From a virus (taxonomy: Duplodnaviria; Caudoviricetes), in the IMG/VR virus record IMGVR_UViG_3300025902_000014, positions 1 to 64,000 of that record: a DNA stretch of 64,000 nucleotides, one strand, 5' to 3'. Shown here one piece after another: positions 2,003 to 54,693 of this stretch. Within the stretch, counting starts at the first letter, position 1. Each line of letters begins with the position of its first letter. A model generated the notes under the pieces. The model was not told the origin of the DNA. It saw nothing but the letters and a program-made list of their open reading frames with translations, and ran no database searches. The translations under genes were made by a program, and so were the position numbers.

Positions 2003-3895
2003 ATGATCGAATTCCAGAACGTCAAGCTCATCGGGTTCTTCAACGCGGCCGAGCTGGTGGAGGTGCCCCTCGACACGAAGGGGCTCAACCTCGTCCTCGG
2101 GGAGAATGGGGCCGGGAAGTCCAGCCGGTACACGGAGGCGCTCTTCTGGGGGCTGTACGGCAAGACCCTCCGGGATTTGAAGTCCTCTGACGGGGTCATC
2201 AACAAGGACTCGGACACGGCGACGGTCGAGATCACCCTCACGGACGGAGGGGAAAAGCTCCAGATCCTCCGGGCCAAGACCCGGGGCAGGTCTCAGGTGC
2301 TGGAAGTCCGGAAGCTCGTGGGGACCGACGAGGTCGTCCTCTTCCCTGCGGCCAACCTCGCGGAGAAGCAGGAGAAGCTGGAAGAGTGGCTCGGGCTCGA
2401 CGCGAACACGTTCCAGAACAGCGTCATCTTCGGGCAGGGGGCCACGGCTCTCTTCGCCGCCGGGCTCTCCGACTCGGAGCGCAAGGCGGTCTTCGACCGG
2501 ATCTGCGGGCTCGACGAGTACGACCGGGCCTTCGAGGTAGCCCAGAGCCAGCGCAAGGCAGCCGACGTCGATGCCACGGTCCGGCAGACCCGCTTCGAGG
2601 ACGCGCAGGCCCGGTTGACCACCCTCCAGACCAACCTCGCCGAGGAGGAAGCCGGGCTCAACATCCTCACCAGTGAGATCGAGGCCGCCCGGGTCACGGT
2701 GTCGGCCCAGATCGAGGAGACCCAGCGGGAGTTGAAGGACGCGGAGGAGAAGCTCGAAACCGCGAAGGTGGCACTTCAGGACGCCAAGGCCACCCGGGAT
2801 GCCCTGCCCCCCGCGTCCGGAGACCCGGAAATCCTCAAGGACCGGAGCGAGACGACCACGCTCCTGCGCGGCCTCGCGGGAGAGAAGGAAGACCTCGGGC
2901 GCAAGCTCCGCGTGGGCCGTGGCAAGGTGGAGGGCTGGACCACGGAAGTGACCCGGCTCAAGGAGAGCATCAAGACCTCGAAGTGCGGGTACTGCGGCTC
3001 GACCCTGTCGAACGTGGAGACCGTTGAGGCCATGCTGGCCGCCCGGGGGAAGGATCTCCGCCTCGAACAGGAGGACGTGGCCCTGCTGGAGAAGCAGCTC
3101 GCAGCCGTGGAGGCCGACATCACCGAGACGGATGCCCTGCTCCGGCAGCTCAACGAGGCCGTGATCGGAGCGTCCCTCGACCGTCGGACGGCGGACGAGA
3201 AGGTGGCGGACCGGGCGGCCAACGTGTCGGCTTTCCGGCTCGTCGTCGAGACCAAGGCCAAGCACCTGACCGCCCTCGGGGGCACGGCGGAGGCCCTCCG
3301 GCGTCGGTTCGAGGCCGCCGAGCGGAACCTCGTGGCTCTGAAAGCGGAGCTGGCGGAGAAGACCGAGGAGATCGTGGGTCTTCAGAAGGCCCGCGACGAG
3401 GCCGTGGACAAGCAGGCTCTCTACCAGTTCTGGGAGGAGGGGTTCGGTCCGAAGGGGATCAAGGCGTTCCTCATCGAGAATGTCCTGCCCACCCTGAACC
3501 GGCTCATCAACGAGCACCTCGGATACCTGAGCGACGGCGGGATCACGGCGAAGGTCTCCGCGACGACGTCCCTCAAGAAGGGCGGGGTGGCCGAGCGGCT
3601 CAGCGTGGATGTCGTCAATGCCTCCGGGGCCGACCTGTACGGCGGGAACTCGGGAGGGGAGAAGCGGCGGATCGACCTCGCCATCCTCCTCGCTCTCCAA
3701 GACCTCGTGGGCTCCCGGGCCAGCCGGGCGGTGAACCTCTGCATCTACGACGAGGTGCTGGATGCCCTCGACGAGGACGGGACGACCAAGGCCGTGAACT
3801 ACCTGAAGATCCGGTCCGTCGGCAAGCCCACTTTTCTCATTTCGCATTCAGAACACACCAAGGCCCTCGTGGAGGATCTGATCCGTGTCGGCTGA
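2003..3895 (+). CDS. Rad50/SbcC/gp46-like SMC ATPase
   Basis: Walker A GENGAGKS, coiled coil with CGYC zinc hook, signature SGGEKRR, Walker B IYDEVLDALD, ISH loop. Confidence 0.95.
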   Translation: MIEFQNVKLIGFFNAAELVEVPLDTKGLNLVLGENGAGKSSRYTEALFWGLYGKTLRDLKSSDGVINKDSDTATVEITLTDGGEKLQILRAKTRGRSQVLEVRKLVGTDEVVLFPAANLAEKQEKLEEWLGLDANTFQNSVIFGQGATALFAAGLSDSERKAVFDRICGLDEYDRAFEVAQSQRKAADVDATVRQTRFEDAQARLTTLQTNLAEEEAGLNILTSEIEAARVTVSAQIEETQRELKDAEEKLETAKVALQDAKATRDALPPASGDPEILKDRSETTTLLRGLAGEKEDLGRKLRVGRGKVEGWTTEVTRLKESIKTSKCGYCGSTLSNVETVEAMLAARGKDLRLEQEDVALLEKQLAAVEADITETDALLRQLNEAVIGASLDRRTADEKVADRAANVSAFRLVVETKAKHLTALGGTAEALRRRFEAAERNLVALKAELAEKTEEIVGLQKARDEAVDKQALYQFWEEGFGPKGIKAFLIENVLPTLNRLINEHLGYLSDGGITAKVSATTSLKKGGVAERLSVDVVNASGADLYGGNSGGEKRRIDLAILLALQDLVGSRASRAVNLCIYDEVLDALDEDGTTKAVNYLKIRSVGKPTFLISHSEHTKALVEDLIRVG

Positions 3896-6292: not shown

Positions 6293-7095
6293 GCAGGGAG
6301 ATCCGGTCCCTCGCGGCGCGGCATCCCTTCGAGGTCCGCTACCGGGCTCGGGAGCTGTACCTGCGGGGGATTTCTCTGGCCGACATCCCCGAGCTGATCG
6401 GGCGGGAGCTGGACGAGAAGAACGCCATGCAGGCCAAGGAGGCCGGGCTGCCTGCACCCCCGCCGACAGAGCGGCTCGCCCCCCGGGTGGTCCGGTACTG
6501 GTTCGACGAGGGGAAGTGGAGCCACTACCGGAAGTCCACGGAACGGGTGGTCCTCAAGGAGCAGGTCAACCGGATCAAGCGGGAGTTCTCGGAGCGGATG
6601 CGGATTCAGGCCGCCCGGCTTCGCCTGAACCAGTCCGTGGTCGAGAGGTACTTCTACAAGCAGGAGCTGGGTGAGAAGGGGGAGGCCCTCTTCCGCCCGG
6701 ACGGCACTCCCAAGGTCGTCATCAAGACCCCCGAGGACGCGCCGATGGACATGGCCGACACCGTGCGCCTCCACCTCGCCGGGATCAAGCTGGACATCGA
6801 GCAACTGAAGGTGGCCGGGGACATGCTGGGTGGGTTCGTTCCGAAGGTTTCCCCCGAGGACTTCACCCTCGGGGCAGCCCCGCCTCCGCTCGCCCGGACC
6901 CGGGCCATCACCCCGGCCCCCGTGGAAGTCCCTGAGAGCCCCGTGGAAGTCCCGGCTTCGACCCCCGAGCCCGAGCCTTCCCCGAAGCCGAAGCGCACCC
7001 GGAAGCCCCGCGCCGTCGTCGTGGAGCCCGAACCCGTCGTTGCCCCCGAGCCCCCCGCGAAGAAGAAGAGAAAGAGGAGGAAGATTCATGCCTGA
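6289..7095 (+). CDS. N-terminal HTH protein, possible terminase small subunit; Pro-rich and basic tail
   Basis: ARELYLRGISLADI...VVRYWFDEGKW resembles TerS-type HTH; follows ParB-like gene. Confidence 0.5.
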   Translation: MSREIRSLAARHPFEVRYRARELYLRGISLADIPELIGRELDEKNAMQAKEAGLPAPPPTERLAPRVVRYWFDEGKWSHYRKSTERVVLKEQVNRIKREFSERMRIQAARLRLNQSVVERYFYKQELGEKGEALFRPDGTPKVVIKTPEDAPMDMADTVRLHLAGIKLDIEQLKVAGDMLGGFVPKVSPEDFTLGAAPPPLARTRAITPAPVEVPESPVEVPASTPEPEPSPKPKRTRKPRAVVVEPEPVVAPEPPAKKKRKRRKIHA

Positions 7096-20667: not shown

Positions 20668-21408
20668 ATGACGGAGGAAAAGAGGACTCTGGAGACCCTG
20701 ATTCGGGAGATCGGGAAGTGGAACCGGGAGACCTTCCCGGGGAGCACGGTCAAGTCCAAGGCGGAGCACCTCCGGCGCGAGGCCATCGAGCTGGCCGAGA
20801 CCCCCGGGGATGAGAGCGAGATGGCCGACATCTTCATCCTGTGGGCCGGGATCGTGGACCTCTTGGGGGTGGACTACGTCCGGGCGATCGAGAAGAAGAT
20901 GGCCAAGAACTACAAGCGGAAGTGGAAGGCCCCGGACGAGCACGGGGTCATCGAGCACCTCGAAGAGGGGGAGGACGATGCGCCTCCGTCCCCGCCTCTG
21001 AAGACCCCGATCCCGGGTGCCCTCGACAAGGTGAACAGCCATCAGCTCGTCCTCTACGTGAAGAACATGGTCATCGACTGTCTGGCTCCTTTCGCCTACG
21101 AACCGAATGGCTCCAAGACGTGGGCGGGCATGACGACCCGCGTGGAGAAGTTCCTCTACTCCCTCATGGCCAAGCACCTCCTCTCGGATTTCAGGGTCAT
21201 CTGCAACGAGCACACCACGACGAAGGAGATGCAGGCCCGGGGGGAGATGGGGCTGCACCTCTACTACCGTCAGAGGCCCACGCTGGAGTTCATCGGGCTG
21301 CACTTCGTTCTTCGCCCGAACGACACGGAAGAGCCCGTCCAGACCCAGCAGGAAGACGTCGTCATCAACCTCAACCCCCCGTACGACGGGGAAGAGGTCG
21401 GCCCGTGA
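20668..21408 (+). CDS. MazG-like dATP/dGTP pyrophosphohydrolase (DUF550-like) fused to a tail-sheath C-terminal-like domain
   Basis: N-term WNRETFP...HLRREAIE...EMADIFIL...KMAKNYKRKW; C-term VNSHQLVLYVK...FAYEPN...TW...FRVICNE...EFIGLHF. Confidence 0.75.
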   Translation: MTEEKRTLETLIREIGKWNRETFPGSTVKSKAEHLRREAIELAETPGDESEMADIFILWAGIVDLLGVDYVRAIEKKMAKNYKRKWKAPDEHGVIEHLEEGEDDAPPSPPLKTPIPGALDKVNSHQLVLYVKNMVIDCLAPFAYEPNGSKTWAGMTTRVEKFLYSLMAKHLLSDFRVICNEHTTTKEMQARGEMGLHLYYRQRPTLEFIGLHFVLRPNDTEEPVQTQQEDVVINLNPPYDGEEVGP

Positions 21409-23830: not shown

Positions 23831-24130
23831 ATGACTGGTCCCAAGGAAGCCTTCTACGACGCGAACATCTCCCCCCTCATGGACGACGTGATCCGCTTCT
23901 GCAAGGCGCAGGGCATCTCGATGCTGGCCTCCTTCGAGCTGGACATCGAAGAGGACGACCCCGACTGCCCGCTGCTCTGCACGACTCAGATCCTCCTGCC
24001 GGACTGCCAGAGCACTGTGCTGAAGAGGGCCGCGAACATCATCTACCCCGGCCCCTCGGTGTGCCTCGCGGAGACGATCGAGACCCTCCCGGACGGGGCG
24101 AAGAAGGTCACGATCGCGAGGATCTCGTGA
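23831..24130 (+). CDS. hypothetical phage protein
   Basis: KEAFYDxxISPLMxxVIxxCK pattern; behind promoter. Confidence 0.7.
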   Translation: MTGPKEAFYDANISPLMDDVIRFCKAQGISMLASFELDIEEDDPDCPLLCTTQILLPDCQSTVLKRAANIIYPGPSVCLAETIETLPDGAKKVTIARIS

Positions 24131-31280: not shown

Positions 31281-31312
31281 TGATTGACACTTCAAGCTCG
31301 CACTGATAGGCT
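31281..31312 (+). promoter_or_regulatory. promoter TTGACA-N17-TAGGCT, copy 1 of a 32-bp exact repeat
   Basis: TGATTGACACTTCAAGCTCGCACTGATAGGCT also at 34016-34047. Confidence 0.85.
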
Positions 31313-32276: not shown

Positions 32277-32642
32277 ATGTGGTTCCAGAAGTTCATCGCT
32301 CCCGAGGGGTCCGACCTGAAGAGCCAGATCGTTCAGGTGGTCACCGAGGCGCTCAACCTTCAGATCGGCGAGCCGATCGACGACCAGACCTTGGACGTCA
32401 TCGTGGACACCGTCTTCGATGGGGTGGGCGAGATCTATGCCGAGGACTTCCTCGTGGAATGCTCGACCCGTAACAACCCCCCGGACCTCGTGGACCGGAA
32501 CGGCCTCGCTGTCCGGCTCATCTTCTTCGGGGAGGCCCACCCGAAGCCCGATGACCTGTATGGGAAGGTGGACATCCTGTTCGACCCCACGAATGGGAAT
32601 CAGACCCCCAAGGCCGAATGGCTGTCGGAGACCAGACGGTGA
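32277..32642 (+). CDS. stand-alone tail-sheath C-terminal-like fragment
   Basis: GEPIDDQT...DFLVECSTRNNPPDLVDRNGLAVRLIF resembles sheath F-x-V-x-C-D-xx-NN-x-P-xx-ID-x-N-x-L. Confidence 0.6.
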   Translation: MWFQKFIAPEGSDLKSQIVQVVTEALNLQIGEPIDDQTLDVIVDTVFDGVGEIYAEDFLVECSTRNNPPDLVDRNGLAVRLIFFGEAHPKPDDLYGKVDILFDPTNGNQTPKAEWLSETRR

Positions 32643-33061
32643 AGCTCGACGCTGTCCTCTTCATCTGCGACAAGCCGAATAAGAATGGGCGGATCTACTC
32701 CCGGGAGCTGGCGAACAGGATCGTCGAGCGGTTTCACGACATGCCCGATCTGTGCGGGCAGGTGGGGATGCCCGAGGACGGGAAGCTCCTCCTGAACAAC
32801 ATCAGCCACGTGGTCCGGGAGCTGAAGGTGACGGAAGTCGGGGAGGACTGGGGGCTCGTGGCGACCATCGAGACCCTTCCATTGGCAGAGAAGGGGCTGA
32901 CCCTCGCGAAGCTCTTGGAGGACGATGACACCCGCAAGCTCTACACCTTCCGGACTGCCGGAACCGGCACCCTGACCGAGATGCCGGACGGGACCGTCCG
33001 CATCAACAACGACTACGTGTTGGAGTCCGTGAACCTCGTCCCGGCCAAGGACGCCGCGTGA
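32639..33061 (+). CDS. catalytically degenerate gp21-like prohead protease paralog
   Basis: NKNGRIYS, GQVGMP (vs ELDHP), ETLP-KG-L, RTAGTG (vs SSRGEG), SVNLV (vs FDFV) aligned with 51290-53236. Confidence 0.8.
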   Translation: MKLDAVLFICDKPNKNGRIYSRELANRIVERFHDMPDLCGQVGMPEDGKLLLNNISHVVRELKVTEVGEDWGLVATIETLPLAEKGLTLAKLLEDDDTRKLYTFRTAGTGTLTEMPDGTVRINNDYVLESVNLVPAKDAA

Positions 33062-33381
33062 GCTTCCCCGGGCTGGAGCCCCCCTTCCTCGGGCTGCCGA
33101 TCACGAACCTCCTCAACGAGGAGGACGCACTCACGGCCATCCGGGCCGGGTTTGTTTACGTCCCGGACGTCCCATTTTTCGTGAACAAGCACCTGCCCTT
33201 CGAGTTCGTTCTCAAGCCCCACCTCGGTCCCCCTCTGCGGCTTCTGGCTCCGTCGTACGTGGACGGGCTGGAGATCGTGGCCCCGGAGCCGATCGTGGTC
33301 TTCAAGCCCGGGGTGTACGCCCGGAACTGGACCACCATCAAGATCCTGATCGAAAAACTGAATAGGAGAAACGGTCATTGA
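33058..33381 (+). CDS. small protein carrying major-capsid C-terminal-like motif
   Basis: NEEDAL...AGFVYVPDVPFF vs MCP NADEAI...SGYVYAPWVPFY. Confidence 0.55.
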   Translation: MSFPGLEPPFLGLPITNLLNEEDALTAIRAGFVYVPDVPFFVNKHLPFEFVLKPHLGPPLRLLAPSYVDGLEIVAPEPIVVFKPGVYARNWTTIKILIEKLNRRNGH

Positions 33382-33737
33382 GCGGAACTGTGATCGAGTT
33401 TGGGAAGGGGCAGGTCGTCACGACCATCATGTCCCGGGGGATCGGCGGGCCGCTTCAGGGGCTCCTGCTCTCGTCCATCGAGGGGCGGCTCGAAGTGGGG
33501 GGCGTGCTCTCTCATCTCGAAGCGGACAAGGCGGTGCCCCTGACCCTTCTCTGGTTCAACGACCCGAAGTCCATCGACGTCCTGATCCACCAGCTCTCCA
33601 AGCTCCGGCTCTACTACGGGCGGCCCACGAAGGACACCGCCTGCCACGGCCGGGAAGTGGACGCTTTCCCCGTCCCGGACGACCTCTGCCTCGCGATCCC
33701 CGACGACAACCTCCCCCTCTTCAAGGCCGGGCTGTGA
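33378..33737 (+). CDS. hypothetical protein
   Basis: TTGA overlap, AGGAG RBS. Confidence 0.6.
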   Translation: MSGTVIEFGKGQVVTTIMSRGIGGPLQGLLLSSIEGRLEVGGVLSHLEADKAVPLTLLWFNDPKSIDVLIHQLSKLRLYYGRPTKDTACHGREVDAFPVPDDLCLAIPDDNLPLFKAGL

Positions 33738-34015
33738 AGAACCTGACCGTCGAAGAACTCAAGCCCTTTCAGGATCGGCTGGTTCCCTGCATCTGTGGGG
33801 GGCACCCGTCCCTCGCTATGTCGATCTGCGCCAAGCCCCAGACCTACTCCGTCCACTGCATGGGGGACGCCGGGCCGAACTGCTGGAAGTCCCCTCAGAC
33901 CCAGTCCCCCGAGGAGATGGTCCAGCTCTGGAACGGGGTAATGGAGGCCGCTCGGGCGGCTGGGCTGGCCTTCACCCATCCGCCCCGGGAGAAGTTCTCG
34001 GGCAACACCCTTTAC

Positions 34016-34047
34016 TGATTGACACTTCAAGCTCGCACTGATAGGCT
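34016..34047 (+). promoter_or_regulatory. promoter copy 2 (exact 32-bp repeat), leaderless GTG 34054
   Basis: identical to 31281-31312. Confidence 0.85.
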
Positions 34048-34474
34048 TCCTACGTGAGCACAGAGACCATACTCATCAACCTCGGCTCGGCAGTCCTCGC
34101 CTTTTTCTGGGTCAGGGCTTTTTCTCGTTGGATGGAGAAGCACGGGTGACGAATCCCGACATCCCCCTGACCATCCTTCACTGCGAGATCTGTGGGCACC
34201 CCCGGGCCATCTACGGGGCCAAGGAGACGGGCGGGTACTGCGAACGGTGCGCCCACACTGTGTCCACCCACGTTCTGCTCGTGGAGATCCGCACCGAGAC
34301 GGCGGACAGGCACGTGCCCTACCGGACGGGCCGGATCTTCGCGGTGAAGCGCGAGAAGTACGAGGAGAAGTTCCCGGATCGCAAGGGCACCCAGTGGTAT
34401 CAGGTGACCGAGGACGACCTGAAAGCCCTCATCCCCGAGGACGTCCTGAACGCTCCGGCCCCGGTGGAGATGAC

Positions 34475-34837
34475 ATGACCTTCGACGCAGAGAACGACCC
34501 GAAGCTCATCCCGGTCCTCGACGTCGAGCTGACCTCGAAGCCGGTGACCGCTCATCCGGGGAGGGAACTCGCGGCCGGGTGGAAGGTGGAAAAGGCCAAG
34601 CCGCTACAGGCGTTCTACTCCCCCGATGTCATGGACCAGATGTGGATGCAGATGCGGGTGGGCAACCGGGTGTGGCACCGCATCGCCGAGGGGGTGCCCC
34701 CGATCGAGGTGGTCATCCAGCGGATCTCCAACGGGCCGATCCCGAAACACTACTGCGAAGCCGTGGAAACGGGCTACCACTTCAAGCTCCGGCGGGACCA
34801 GCTCTGGTGGTCGGAGGCGTGTGGAGCCAAGGAGTAA
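34475..34837 (+). CDS. small protein with N-terminal major-capsid (gp23) fragment
   Basis: IPVLDVELTSKPVTAHPGRELAAGWKVEKAKPLQA vs MCP IPQIDLILTSTPVVARP-RKLRARWSIEAAAQLKA. Confidence 0.75.
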   Translation: MTFDAENDPKLIPVLDVELTSKPVTAHPGRELAAGWKVEKAKPLQAFYSPDVMDQMWMQMRVGNRVWHRIAEGVPPIEVVIQRISNGPIPKHYCEAVETGYHFKLRRDQLWWSEACGAKE

Positions 34838-35085
34838 AGACGTGAAGACAGCGAAGATCAAAATCCTCGTGGCCGTGGGTAGCAACGGTGACTGGGCGGC
34901 GAGTGGCTGGGGTCTGAAAGGCAAGGCTCCCGACAAGCGCAGCATCGAGTCCATGAAGGACACGGTCACCGACATGGTCGAGGCTGAGGACTACCAGTAC
35001 GTCTGGGTCGAGGCGGAAGTCCCGGTTCCCGAGATCGGAACCGTCTTCGGCAGCGTCATCAATACCGAGCCGTCTCGGTGATCCC

Positions 35086-35451
35086 ATGACGGGGTTCAGG
35101 ATGTTCCTGCGTCTCTCGGGGCCGCCGGGAAGCCCGGACTTCGAGCAGCCAGTCGCGGCCATGGATGTGGACTACATCCATCAGCTTCTGCACCTGAAAT
35201 TCAGGGTCGAATTTCCTCTCATCAAAGACCTCGAAACGTGGTGGACACACTCGCATCGCACGCTCCCGTTTCTCCATCTCGTCTGGGTGGACCCGGAAGG
35301 GGACGAGCAGAACAGCGTGTCCTTCGAGCAGTGCCACACCGCCCAGATCGCTACGACCACGGAATACTCCAGCCCGCAAGCAGTGACCGTGGCTCTTGAC
35401 CTCGTGTTCAGCAAGCCCAGCCGGAGCTTTCCGGGGTCCAGCGGATGGTGA
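35086..35451 (+). CDS. tail-tube (gp19)-like degenerate protein
   Basis: LETWW...LVWVDPEGDEQNSVSFEQC...EYSSPQAVTVALDLVF resembles T4-type tube C-terminal half. Confidence 0.5.
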   Translation: MTGFRMFLRLSGPPGSPDFEQPVAAMDVDYIHQLLHLKFRVEFPLIKDLETWWTHSHRTLPFLHLVWVDPEGDEQNSVSFEQCHTAQIATTTEYSSPQAVTVALDLVFSKPSRSFPGSSGW

Positions 35452-36053
35452 AGCTCTTCTTCTCCGAGGCTGGCCCCCGGGCGGCGGGGTACGCCCGGAC
35501 CATCCGTACCCTTCGGGCCTACCGGCGCATGGGGCAGAAAGAGCTGGCCGAGAAGTCGGGGTACTCCATTGCTTCCGTCATTCTGTGGGAGGCGGGGAAG
35601 GTGGAGCCTGCCGAGGCGGCCCGGATCGACCTCGCGCAGTCCTTCAAGGTTCCGCTTCGGGTCTTCGATTGGCTGGCGGCTACCTCCGACCCCCTGAGCG
35701 TGGACTTCCTCGTGCCCGAGGAGCAGGAAGACCCGGGGAAGCTGTACTTCCGGGCGGAGGAGGTCTGCGCCGAAGCCGGGGTCTGCATGAACACCTTCTA
35801 CAAGATCCGGAAGGTCATGAAGGTCAAGGCCAAACGCATGGCCGGGCAGCTCTGGTACACTCGGGACGACATCGAGGCCATCCGGTGGGAAAGCCATCGG
35901 CGGGCGCGGATGAAAAGTGAGAAACTCGCCGAGTCGGCGCTGGCCCGGCACGAGTACAGGAGGCAGCATGGCGAATTCCGATCCGTGGGTTCACAGGTCC
36001 GAAGGGATGACGTGCAAGACGTGCATGTGGTACGCCCCGAAGAAGTCGGCTGA
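35445..36053 (+). CDS. XRE-type HTH plus second HTH transcription regulator
   Basis: IRTLRAYRRMGQKELAEKSGYSIASVILWEAG; EEVCAEAGVCMNTFYK. Confidence 0.7.
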   Translation: MVKLFFSEAGPRAAGYARTIRTLRAYRRMGQKELAEKSGYSIASVILWEAGKVEPAEAARIDLAQSFKVPLRVFDWLAATSDPLSVDFLVPEEQEDPGKLYFRAEEVCAEAGVCMNTFYKIRKVMKVKAKRMAGQLWYTRDDIEAIRWESHRRARMKSEKLAESALARHEYRRQHGEFRSVGSQVRRDDVQDVHVVRPEEVG

Positions 36054-53268: not shown

Positions 53269-54693
53269 ATGGAACTCAACGAAGCAACGTTCAAGATGGG
53301 AACCTCGGAGCGGGTCAACAACGCTCTGGCCGCGTCCAAGTGGCGCAGGTTCCTCGAAGCCGCCAAGGTGCCCGAGGCCAAGCGGCCCTTCATCGCCCGG
53401 CTCTGCGAGAACCAGCTCACGTGGATGAGCCAGCTCGACGAGGAGACCCGTGTGGCCTCCATCGGGTCGTTCGAGAAGTTCGTCTTCCCGATGATCCGTG
53501 CGGTCTACCCGAACCTCGTCGCGCAGGATCTCGTCTCGGTGCAGCCGATGGAGGCTCCGACCTCCCTCGTGTTCTACCGCGACACCCGGTTCGGCTCCAA
53601 CAAGGGCGCGGTGAAGGCGGGTGATCCGCTCTTCAGTGCGCGCACCGGCTGGAACAACGCCTCCGGGTTCAACTACACCTCCGAGGTCGTCGAGAACGAA
53701 GAGATCGAGATGTCCACGGGCACGGGCGTGTCCTTCACGGGCAACCTCGCCTACCACCCCCTCCGTCCGGGCGGGCTGGTGATCTCCTACCTCAAGACCG
53801 CCGGGACCGCTGCGACCCTCACCGACGACGGCGCGGGCGGCCTCATCGGCGCGGCCGGTGAGCTGGCCGGGACGAACACGATCGACTACGGCACGGGTGC
53901 CTACGTCATCACCTTCGACACCGGGAAAGACCCGGCGGCCGGGGCCTTCACGGCCACGTACGACTACAACTCCGAGGGCTACGGGGACATCCCGCAGATC
54001 GACCTCATCCTCACGAGCACGCCCGTCGTGGCTCGCCCGAGGAAGCTCCGCGCTCGGTGGAGCATCGAGGCGGCGGCCCAGCTCAAGGCGGTCCACGGTG
54101 ACGAGGCCGAGGTCGAGCTGATGACCGACATGGCCAACGAGATGCGGATCGAGGTCGATCGCGAGATCATCTACGACCTCATCACCCTCGCCAACTCCAA
54201 CAACACCTCTGGCACGATCACCGAGACGACGTTCGCCAAGGCCGCGCCTTCGAACATCAGCCTCTACCTGCACCGCCAGAGCTTCATCTACTCGCTCATC
54301 GAAGCCTCGAACAAGATCTTTCAGGCGACCCGTCGCCACGGAGCCACGTGGCTCATCGGCGGCACGAACGTCTGCTCGATCATTCAGGGTCAGGAGGGCG
54401 AGCAGTTCGTCCCGGCCGGTGGCGACTATCAGGGTTCCGGCGTCCAGTTCATCGGCACCCTGAAGGGCCAGTGGAAGGTCTACCTCGACCCGTACATGAA
54501 CGCGGACGAGGCCATCCTCGGCTACAAGGGCGGGTCGTTCCTCGACAGCGGCTACGTCTACGCGCCGTGGGTTCCCTTCTACGCCACCCCGACCATCTAC
54601 CTCGACGACTTCGTCGGCCGCAAGGGGCTCTTCACCAGCTACGCGAAGAAGCCGATCAACGGGCTCTTCTATGCAAAGTTGAGGCTCACCTAA
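53269..54693 (+). CDS. major capsid protein (T4 gp23-like)
   Basis: ENQ, PMIRAVYPNLVAQDLVSVQPM, RKLRARWSIEAAAQLKAVHG, EVDREII, YLDPY, GYKG...YVYAPWVP. Confidence 0.95.
   Translation: MELNEATFKMGTSERVNNALAASKWRRFLEAAKVPEAKRPFIARLCENQLTWMSQLDEETRVASIGSFEKFVFPMIRAVYPNLVAQDLVSVQPMEAPTSLVFYRDTRFGSNKGAVKAGDPLFSARTGWNNASGFNYTSEVVENEEIEMSTGTGVSFTGNLAYHPLRPGGLVISYLKTAGTAATLTDDGAGGLIGAAGELAGTNTIDYGTGAYVITFDTGKDPAAGAFTATYDYNSEGYGDIPQIDLILTSTPVVARPRKLRARWSIEAAAQLKAVHGDEAEVELMTDMANEMRIEVDREIIYDLITLANSNNTSGTITETTFAKAAPSNISLYLHRQSFIYSLIEASNKIFQATRRHGATWLIGGTNVCSIIQGQEGEQFVPAGGDYQGSGVQFIGTLKGQWKVYLDPYMNADEAILGYKGGSFLDSGYVYAPWVPFYATPTIYLDDFVGRKGLFTSYAKKPINGLFYAKLRLT

Follow-up and report, generated by a model that had tools for sequence, protein, structure and literature searches.

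A two-part protein of an uncultured T4-like phage joins a module apparently derived from a gp23-type capsid protein to an unrelated domain

We found that a small gene of an uncultured T4-like phage encodes a two-part protein. It is well supported that this is a real, selected phage gene. Sequence alignments likewise give good support for descent of its N-terminal 62 residues from a gp23-type major capsid protein (MCP). A core of about 35 residues within this part is the constant element in a set of small phage proteins whose partner domain changes, which is also well supported; the gene thus belongs to a new, small family founded on this module of capsid origin. As to function, we tentatively propose that the small protein mimics MCP and blocks a partner that binds capsid protein, most likely a host capsid-sensing defense protein. 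The DNA that we analyzed, called the window here, is the first 64,000 nucleotides of a 96-kb IMG/VR contig, which is estimated to be 67% complete. The features that bear on the argument are collected in Table 1.

Table 1. Features of the small gene, its neighborhood, and the resident capsid gene (positions are those of the window and, beyond its end, of the contig)
Feature	Position	Strand	Basis or remark
Small gene, 120 aa	34475..34837	+	uncultured wastewater T4-like phage
MCP-derived part, residues 1-62	34475..34660	+	BLASTP, Smith-Waterman; dN/dS 0.32
Core module, residues 12-46, IPxLDxELTSxPVxAHxxxxLxxxWxVE...	34508..34612	+	alignments
C-terminal domain, residues 63-120	34661..34834	+	predicted beta-rich
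Upstream ORF, ~106-116 aa, CxxC...CxxC zinc-ribbon-like	34158..34478	+	sub-threshold zinc-finger matches only
Sheath C-terminal-like mini-gene	32277-32642	+	BLASTP E 2e-5, SW p 5e-5
Prohead-protease N-domain paralog, 147 aa	32618-33061	+	PHROG_207 E 6.7e-7, BLASTP E 1e-6
Resident gp23-type MCP, 474 aa	53269..54693	+	Pfam PF07068 (Gp23) E 3.3e-58
Sigma-70-type promoter-like site (TTGACA, 17 nt, TAGGCT)	34019..34047	+	consensus match only
Promoter-like sites	8280, 10911, 20055, 23779, 28558, 31284, 34019, 36420	+	sigma-70-like consensus
Promoter-like sites, continued	39762, 45169, 47004, 47549, 48020, 54785, 56143	+	sigma-70-like consensus
Promoter-like sites beyond the window	72998, 73370	+	sigma-70-like consensus

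The ATG of the small gene at position 34475 overlaps the stop codon of the upstream ORF as ATGA, and a GGAG ribosome site lies 5 nt before it (34466-34469). The GC content at third codon positions (GC3) is 0.90 in frame, which matches the genome's other genes, and 0.63 and 0.41 in the other two frames. A related, syntenic phage contig with about 91% DNA identity (L001) encodes a 71%-identical ortholog, P0002. Comparison of the two genes gave a dN/dS of 0.30 with a dS of 0.59. Both halves are under purifying selection, with dN/dS values of 0.32 for the capsid-like half and 0.29 for the C-terminal half. Metagenomes of wastewater, activated sludge, and digesters from several studies encode the same protein or nearly identical ones, and one sample contains two alleles of the gene. 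A tblastn search of 50,697 phage records with the small protein returned no match at an E value of ≤1. Pfam, PHROGs, and NCBIfam assigned no family to the small protein or its operon neighbors, and PADLOC returned nothing meaningful for any of them.

The resident MCP also matches PHROG_138, "major head protein" (E, 1.9e-60), and is the only Gp23 match that a profile search found in the 96-kb record. Its identity to the MCP of any cultured phage is below 40%, and we found no close relative of it in IMG/VR. The first-pass annotation of this DNA had claimed that residues 10 to 45 or so of the small protein match the resident MCP at roughly 16 identical positions and then give way to an unrelated C terminus. 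By BLASTP, we found that residues 1 to 62 align with MCP residues 214 to 294 (53908-54150) at 39.7 bits and an E value of 6e-9, with one 16-residue gap. The Smith-Waterman score was 87, against a shuffle mean of 29.6 with a standard deviation of 4.3 (n = 2,000; z, 13; Gumbel p, 3e-8). The match therefore stands up to shuffled controls, and it is longer than claimed. When all ORFs of the window (stop to stop, at least 60 aa) were scanned in the same way, the MCP was the sole outlier, and the runner-up scored 46. In the ungapped core (small protein 12 to 46 versus MCP 241 to 274), 18/34 residues are identical, slightly more than had been counted. Upstream, the match extends to MTFD..DP in the small protein and ITFD..DP in the MCP; downstream, it runs into the beginning of the spine helix (DVMDQMWMQMRV in the small protein and VELMTDMANEMRI in the MCP). 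Past residue ~62 to 70, the small protein is unrelated to the MCP and enters a different domain, as the annotation had said.

Not every search recovered this match. A tblastn search of the genome missed what BLASTP and Smith-Waterman gave, which we read as a loss of seeds or statistics for a short gapped match. The small protein had no Pfam match at an E value of ≤1 and was missed in a genome search with PF07068, for which membership is set by a curated cutoff of 24.4 bits over most of a 376-position model. The shortness of the match is all that would favor a chance resemblance; the shuffling statistics speak against chance, and members of the family described below independently match the Pfam Gp23 profile and another phage's MCP. 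The GC3 and dN/dS values speak in the same way against the idea that there is no gene here at all. We consider both ideas extremely improbable.

A phmmer search of PDB sequences aligned MCP residues 250 to 294 with residues 256 to 300 of T4 gp23. Because of this alignment, the copied part can be assigned by homology to the end of the I domain, linker 2 (the E-loop equivalent), the first strand of the P domain, and the start of the spine helix. The last I-domain strand would correspond to MTFD..DP and the first P-domain strand to the motif TS.PV...W.VE. The spine helix of T4 gp23 includes residues 292, 306, and 307, and before the shell expands, the I-domain linkers are flexible (PMC9546572). 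After expansion, the linkers make intra- and intercapsomer contacts and form Soc-binding sites, and they engage in parallel beta interactions with the N-terminal segments of adjacent subunits (PMC9546572). The annotation had described the segment as a plausible intersubunit interface and as one of the best-conserved parts of gp23-type capsids. The first description agrees with the T4 homology, by which the segment includes linker 2, with its contacts within and between capsomers. For the second, we searched the phage collection by tblastn with the MCP; the weak matches typically started at residue 243 to 253, and therefore the segment opens the conserved core of the family. The annotation had also suggested that the segment could be an immune epitope. 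The small protein itself is incomplete with respect to the HK97 fold: it has 120 aa, its similarity to the MCP stops at residue ~62 to 70, and the model of its C-terminal part is a small beta barrel. It has no N-arm, A domain, or P loop and is therefore unable to form an HK97 fold or a shell.

Short ORFs with this gp23 segment, for which the annotation had suggested a database search, do exist. Using an exhaustive HMMER search of 1.84 billion representative sequences and a profile search of 5.8 billion proteins, we found five clusters of small proteins in total. The window type (P0001 and P0006-8; 118 to 120 aa; 64% GC), P0002 from L001 (117 aa), and P0003 (104 aa; 40% identity to the window protein) consist of the module and a putative barrel. 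P0004 (74 aa; contig L003, 43% GC) has the module and a basic tail, and P0005 (182 aa; contig L004, 45% GC) has a PHROG_1485 domain, the module, and a basic tail. The PHROG_1485 domain occurs alone in other phages. The core module is the only part common to all five clusters, and residues T20, S21, P23, V24, and W36 are invariant. P0004 matches the Pfam Gp23 profile at positions 129 to 176 only (14.1 bits; E, 0.032), and it also matches the MCP of the huge phage LR756508. The window MCP and the P0004 and P0005 segments share 47 to 49% identity over 45 aa (E, about 1e-8).

The module family is rare. IMG/VR scans with the protein, with the alignment, and with two motif patterns found no member, and a motif scan of JGI metagenomes returned the same phage again (L005) and no further member. 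A motif scan of 185,579 GTDB genomes gave five chance matches, which were interrupted by stops or lay in unrelated proteins. Among longer proteins, the family-profile search found nothing at an E value of ≤1, which is weak evidence given that candidates were crowded out.

The contigs that carry P0004 and P0005 showed some further features. On L003 (positions 1 to 813; an ENA contig), three consecutive ORFs, including P0004, end in one common C-terminal tail (D-P-x-x-P-L-K-K/T-L-I-R/S-R/N-A-K/Q-K), which may be a shared targeting or binding tag. On L004 (positions 253 to 965), P0005 comes directly after two genes, one sigma-70-like (Sigma70_r2/r4; E, about 2e-6) and one of 69 aa. The 69-aa gene has a precomputed match to Acb5 (PF26761; anti-CBASS), which was not reproduced in a separate Pfam scan.

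Rather than a recent copy of the resident MCP, the module is an old one that has spread horizontally, because all five clusters have an extra residue, nucleotide identity to the MCP gene is low, and the window segment is closer to P0005 than to its own MCP. The extra residue lies between PVVAH and W and is absent from the window MCP, the LR756508 MCP, and T4 gp23. Over the core, the small gene and the resident MCP gene share 59% nucleotide identity and 47% identity at third positions. Counted from the sequences, the window segment is identical to that of P0005, from a 45%-GC phage, at 23/35 positions and to that of its own MCP at 18/34. The annotation had described a segment of the phage's own MCP transplanted onto a novel protein. 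The transplant stands insofar as the N-terminal 60 or so residues are MCP derived and joined to another domain; the phage's own MCP as the source does not, given the 59% nucleotide identity and the extra residue. An origin by gene splitting or a homing endonuclease was considered too, but we rejected it in view of the intact resident MCP and of the neighbors of P0004 and P0005, which are not pieces of an MCP.

Residues 63 to 120 have no sequence relatives beyond P0002 and P0003 among the 1.84 billion representatives and 5.8 billion proteins. AF2 did not give a usable model of the whole small protein (pLDDT, 33), and the N-terminal half was not folded. For residues 53 to 120, the mean pLDDT was 57, with values of 62 to 77 in the core, and the model is a beta meander with three clear strands and two short ones. 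When we searched the PDB with this model, Z scores were 3.2 to 4.4, and the top 50 structures were nearly all Tudor, chromo, PWWP, SH3, or KOW barrels. A low-confidence ESM Atlas model gave TM scores of 0.71 to 0.79 to Tudor/PWWP clusters. A BFVD fold search with the C-terminal model found nothing at an E value of ≤0.001, and P0002 has a sub-threshold Pfam match to Phage_ProQ_C_like (E, 0.04). From these models, the C-terminal domain is probably a small barrel of the SH3/Tudor type.

The small gene lies among genes that change quickly. Relative to L001, dS is 0.5 to 1.0 for the small gene and the next two genes and 0 to 0.3 for flanking genes. In the allele P0007, 9/10 substitutions fall within residues 1 to 51, the capsid-like half (Fisher p, 0.017). 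The locus looks like a mosaic accessory hot spot. The upstream zinc-ribbon-like ORF has an ortholog in L001 (dN/dS, 0.33), and the ATGA overlap suggests that it is translationally coupled to the small gene.

We made several further observations at this locus. In L001, an extra 136-aa ORFan (6566-6976) is inserted directly after the small gene. The protein of gene 35086-35451 is 47% identical between the window and L001 despite the ~91% identity of the DNA backbone. L005, which comes from another metagenome, is 100% identical to the same phage over 2.9 kb, and its last 120 bases (2913-3032), past window position 34425 and thus starting 50 bp before the small gene, have no match in the genome. 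This divergence suggests a recombination breakpoint inside the upstream ORF. A few bases past the promoter at 34019 begins a hydrophobic ORF of 31 aa (MSTETILINLGSAVLAFFWVRAF...; 34054-34149), whose end overlaps the first part of the zinc-ribbon ORF. It may encode a small membrane peptide or simply provide an alternative start region. Similarity searches gave no support for ORF 33058 as a second MCP fragment or for ORF 35086 as a tail-tube-like protein.

Two other mini-genes that resemble virion proteins, one like the sheath C terminus and one like the prohead protease N domain, sit in the operon just upstream of that of the small gene (32277..33061). The ELDHP, SSRG, and FDFV motifs of the protease align with QVGMP, RTAG, and VNLV in the paralog. 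Because these catalytic positions are replaced, the paralog is probably catalytically dead. Elsewhere in the window, a sheath C-terminal-like domain is fused to a dATP/dGTP pyrophosphohydrolase (MazG-like) at 20668-21408 (PF04447, E 9e-12; PHROG_10581, E 6e-12). A 99-aa ORF at 23831-24130 weakly resembles the protease paralog (SW p, 1e-4; tblastn E, 0.08) and may be another fragment of the protease-derived kind.

The promoter-like site at 34019 heads the operon that contains the small gene, and an identical 29-mer at 31284 heads the preceding operon. We found 17 extended sigma-70-like sites in the record, all on the plus strand, where 0.68 were expected from shuffles, and three of the 17 were found independently as well. 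The recurrent pattern is TTGACA G/C TT..A.GCT.., then TAnnnT. None of the 17 lies directly before the protease gene or the MCP gene, and the window contains no late promoter of the T4 type (TATAAATA). The promoter suggests that the small gene would be expressed by the host polymerase, probably early. Since promoters of this type stand before some structural-region genes too, early expression of the small gene is a prediction. Metatranscriptome contigs cover neighboring genes and not positions 33340 to 36000; such a contig gap is uninformative on expression.

Bacterial immune systems, CBASS and Pycsar included, are triggered especially often by capsid proteins. To our knowledge, phages escape capsid sensing by mutation of the capsid gene alone, which is costly. 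CapRel is triggered by a capsid protein that it binds 1:1 as the monomer (PMC9712102). Thoeris is also triggered by a capsid protein; mutations in its E-loop and P-loop allow escape, a Trp of the E-loop matters, and E-loop/P-loop association holds capsomers together (10.1101/2024.07.29.605636). Lit is triggered by a capsid protein as well (PMC3014915).

Mimicry of the MCP is the reading that fits best: the interface strand is kept while its partners vary, the locus evolves fast, the promoter is of the host type, and the neighbors are virion derived. According to this model, the small protein would be made from a sigma-70-like promoter independently of the capsid gene and would display, on a small soluble scaffold, an MCP strand that stays flexible until assembly and then becomes buried where subunits touch. 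A protein that displays an interface strand in this way is therefore proposed to be a molecular mimic of unassembled MCP, and it would occupy a partner that normally engages the displayed strand. Because capsid proteins trigger CapRel, Thoeris, and Lit, we rank a host capsid-sensing defense protein first among such partners, and the small protein would be its decoy or blocker. The specific homology to the MCP and the purifying selection on both halves are consistent with this model. So is the retention of the module across carriers of 43 to 64% GC while it is joined to a putative SH3-like barrel, a basic tail, or a PHROG_1485 domain. The T4 linkers change from flexible to contact making upon expansion, the protease and MCP genes are not directly preceded by the promoter type found at 34019, the mosaic locus has an allele whose changes fall mostly in the capsid-like half, and the adjacent mini-genes come from the sheath and prohead protease; all of these also fit. 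The Acb5-family gene adjoining P0005 would fit too, but its match was seen in the precomputed annotation and not in the separate scan. Against the model, a trigger mimic could activate the sensor instead of blocking it. The early timing is deduced from a promoter consensus, and promoters of this type occur in the structural region. PADLOC, NCBIfam, and PHROG gave no match that indicates such a function, and AF2 did not fold the half that would be displayed. On balance, we hold mimicry as a tentative proposal.

The same strand could instead bind the phage's own capsid. Here, the MCP-derived strand would pair with a complementary element of the resident MCP, for example, the N-arm or linker 1 of an adjacent subunit, and the protein could dock on procapsids or MCP monomers. 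It might then control the timing or fine-tuning of assembly, decorate the shell, or travel in the virion. T4 linkers do pair with adjacent N-terminal segments and form Soc-binding sites, the module resembles a portable tag in that it stands at either end of unrelated domains, P0004 joins it to the tail common to its neighboring ORFs, and the promoter type is shared with structural-region genes. However, the small gene is surrounded by ORFans at a distance of 19 kb from the head module, and in folded MCP the protein's own strand already fills the corresponding position. The segment diverges quickly between strains, and a core assembly factor should be less rare and less patchy than this family, which motif scans detected in no record of IMG/VR or GTDB. 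We regard capsid docking as possible but rather doubtful. An old captured fragment could also have become an ordinary structural or linker part of small proteins that have no capsid-related function. The capsid part and the C-terminal domain are equally conserved, and recycling of fragments is frequent in phage genomes. Nevertheless, the capsid module is the sole element kept across five architectures in very different phages, with TS.PV...W.VE invariant, which is the pattern expected if the module itself carries the function, and fragments of two other virion proteins lie alongside; a mere remnant thus seems unlikely to us. Finally, the small protein might be a dominant-negative piece of capsid protein that is produced ahead of the resident MCP and poisons the capsomers of coinfecting relatives or of capsid-hijacking satellites. 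Capsomers are held together by E-loop/P-loop association, the locus is mosaic and multiallelic, and the fragment could be selective, since it and the resident MCP differ at about every second position. Such a fragment would risk poisoning the phage's own assembly too, and the segment is nearer to the resident MCP than to the LR756508 MCP, the only other MCP compared. We consider this use in interference quite improbable.

If mimicry of the MCP is the correct reading, a cheap, separate, fast-evolving gene that presents the recognized or interface strand would be a new counterstrategy, and the small gene would point to the part of the MCP that is read by sensors or assembly partners. If the protein docks on capsids instead, the module would be a natural, portable tag of ~35 residues that binds gp23-type shells. 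On either reading, the family would mark a functionally important surface of unassembled MCP. The small gene is also part of a wider pattern with the adjacent sheath- and protease-derived mini-genes. More speculatively, early accessory genes whose products present single conserved peptides from the phage's own virion proteins (capsid, sheath, and prohead protease) on small scaffolds, SH3-like barrels for instance, may form a class not yet described, which would blind immune sensors of structural proteins by mimicking the trigger. It is equally speculative that this class is carried by T4-like and large uncultured phages and that the small gene is the member presenting the capsid strand equivalent to the E-loop. 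In a literature search, we found no paper on a phage-encoded capsid-mimic decoy, no antidefense protein built from a fragment of its own trigger, and no description of the virion-derived mini-gene pattern.

Some phage antidefense proteins, such as DSAD1 against DSR2, compete with a structural protein that serves as the trigger; others, such as the Acb and Tad sponges, sequester signals. The idea shared with the small protein is that of a small accessory protein from a variable region, here proposed to hide the trigger from the sensor; there is no relation in sequence or fold. The T4 capsid targeting sequence and the cargo-loading peptides of encapsulins are likewise short conserved modules on unrelated small domains. 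They differ from the module described here in that the shell protein is not their source. In T4, the targeting sequence is also N-terminal and ends in a protease site, whereas the start of the small protein, MTFDAENDPKL, compared by eye, has no cargo-type leader ending in an L/I-x-E protease site.

The closest relatives of the copied part are T4 gp23 and gp24 (PF07068; HK97 fold; PDB 7VS5 and 5VF3), with residues 1 to 62 corresponding to about 246 to 300 of gp23. Like gp24, the small gene is a second gene derived from a capsid gene. Unlike gp23 and gp24, its product keeps ~60 of ~470 residues and is fused to an unrelated, probably barrel-like domain. The Gol region of T4 gp23, which acts with EF-Tu and Lit, is likewise a short internal peptide of a gp23-type MCP, and the Gol peptide alone suffices for recognition by a host defense pathway (PMC3014915). 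By analogy, the Gol case shows that such MCP peptides can carry recognizable information. Gol lies within the first quarter of gp23, activates defense, and has no separate gene (PMC3014915). Its equivalent in the window MCP is at residues ~71 to 100, whereas the small-protein segment corresponds to MCP 214 to 294 (T4 ~246 to 300). Since the segment lies outside the first quarter of gp23, we rejected the idea that it is Gol. Gol activates defense as part of gp23; the small protein is the product of a separate gene, and we propose that it blocks.
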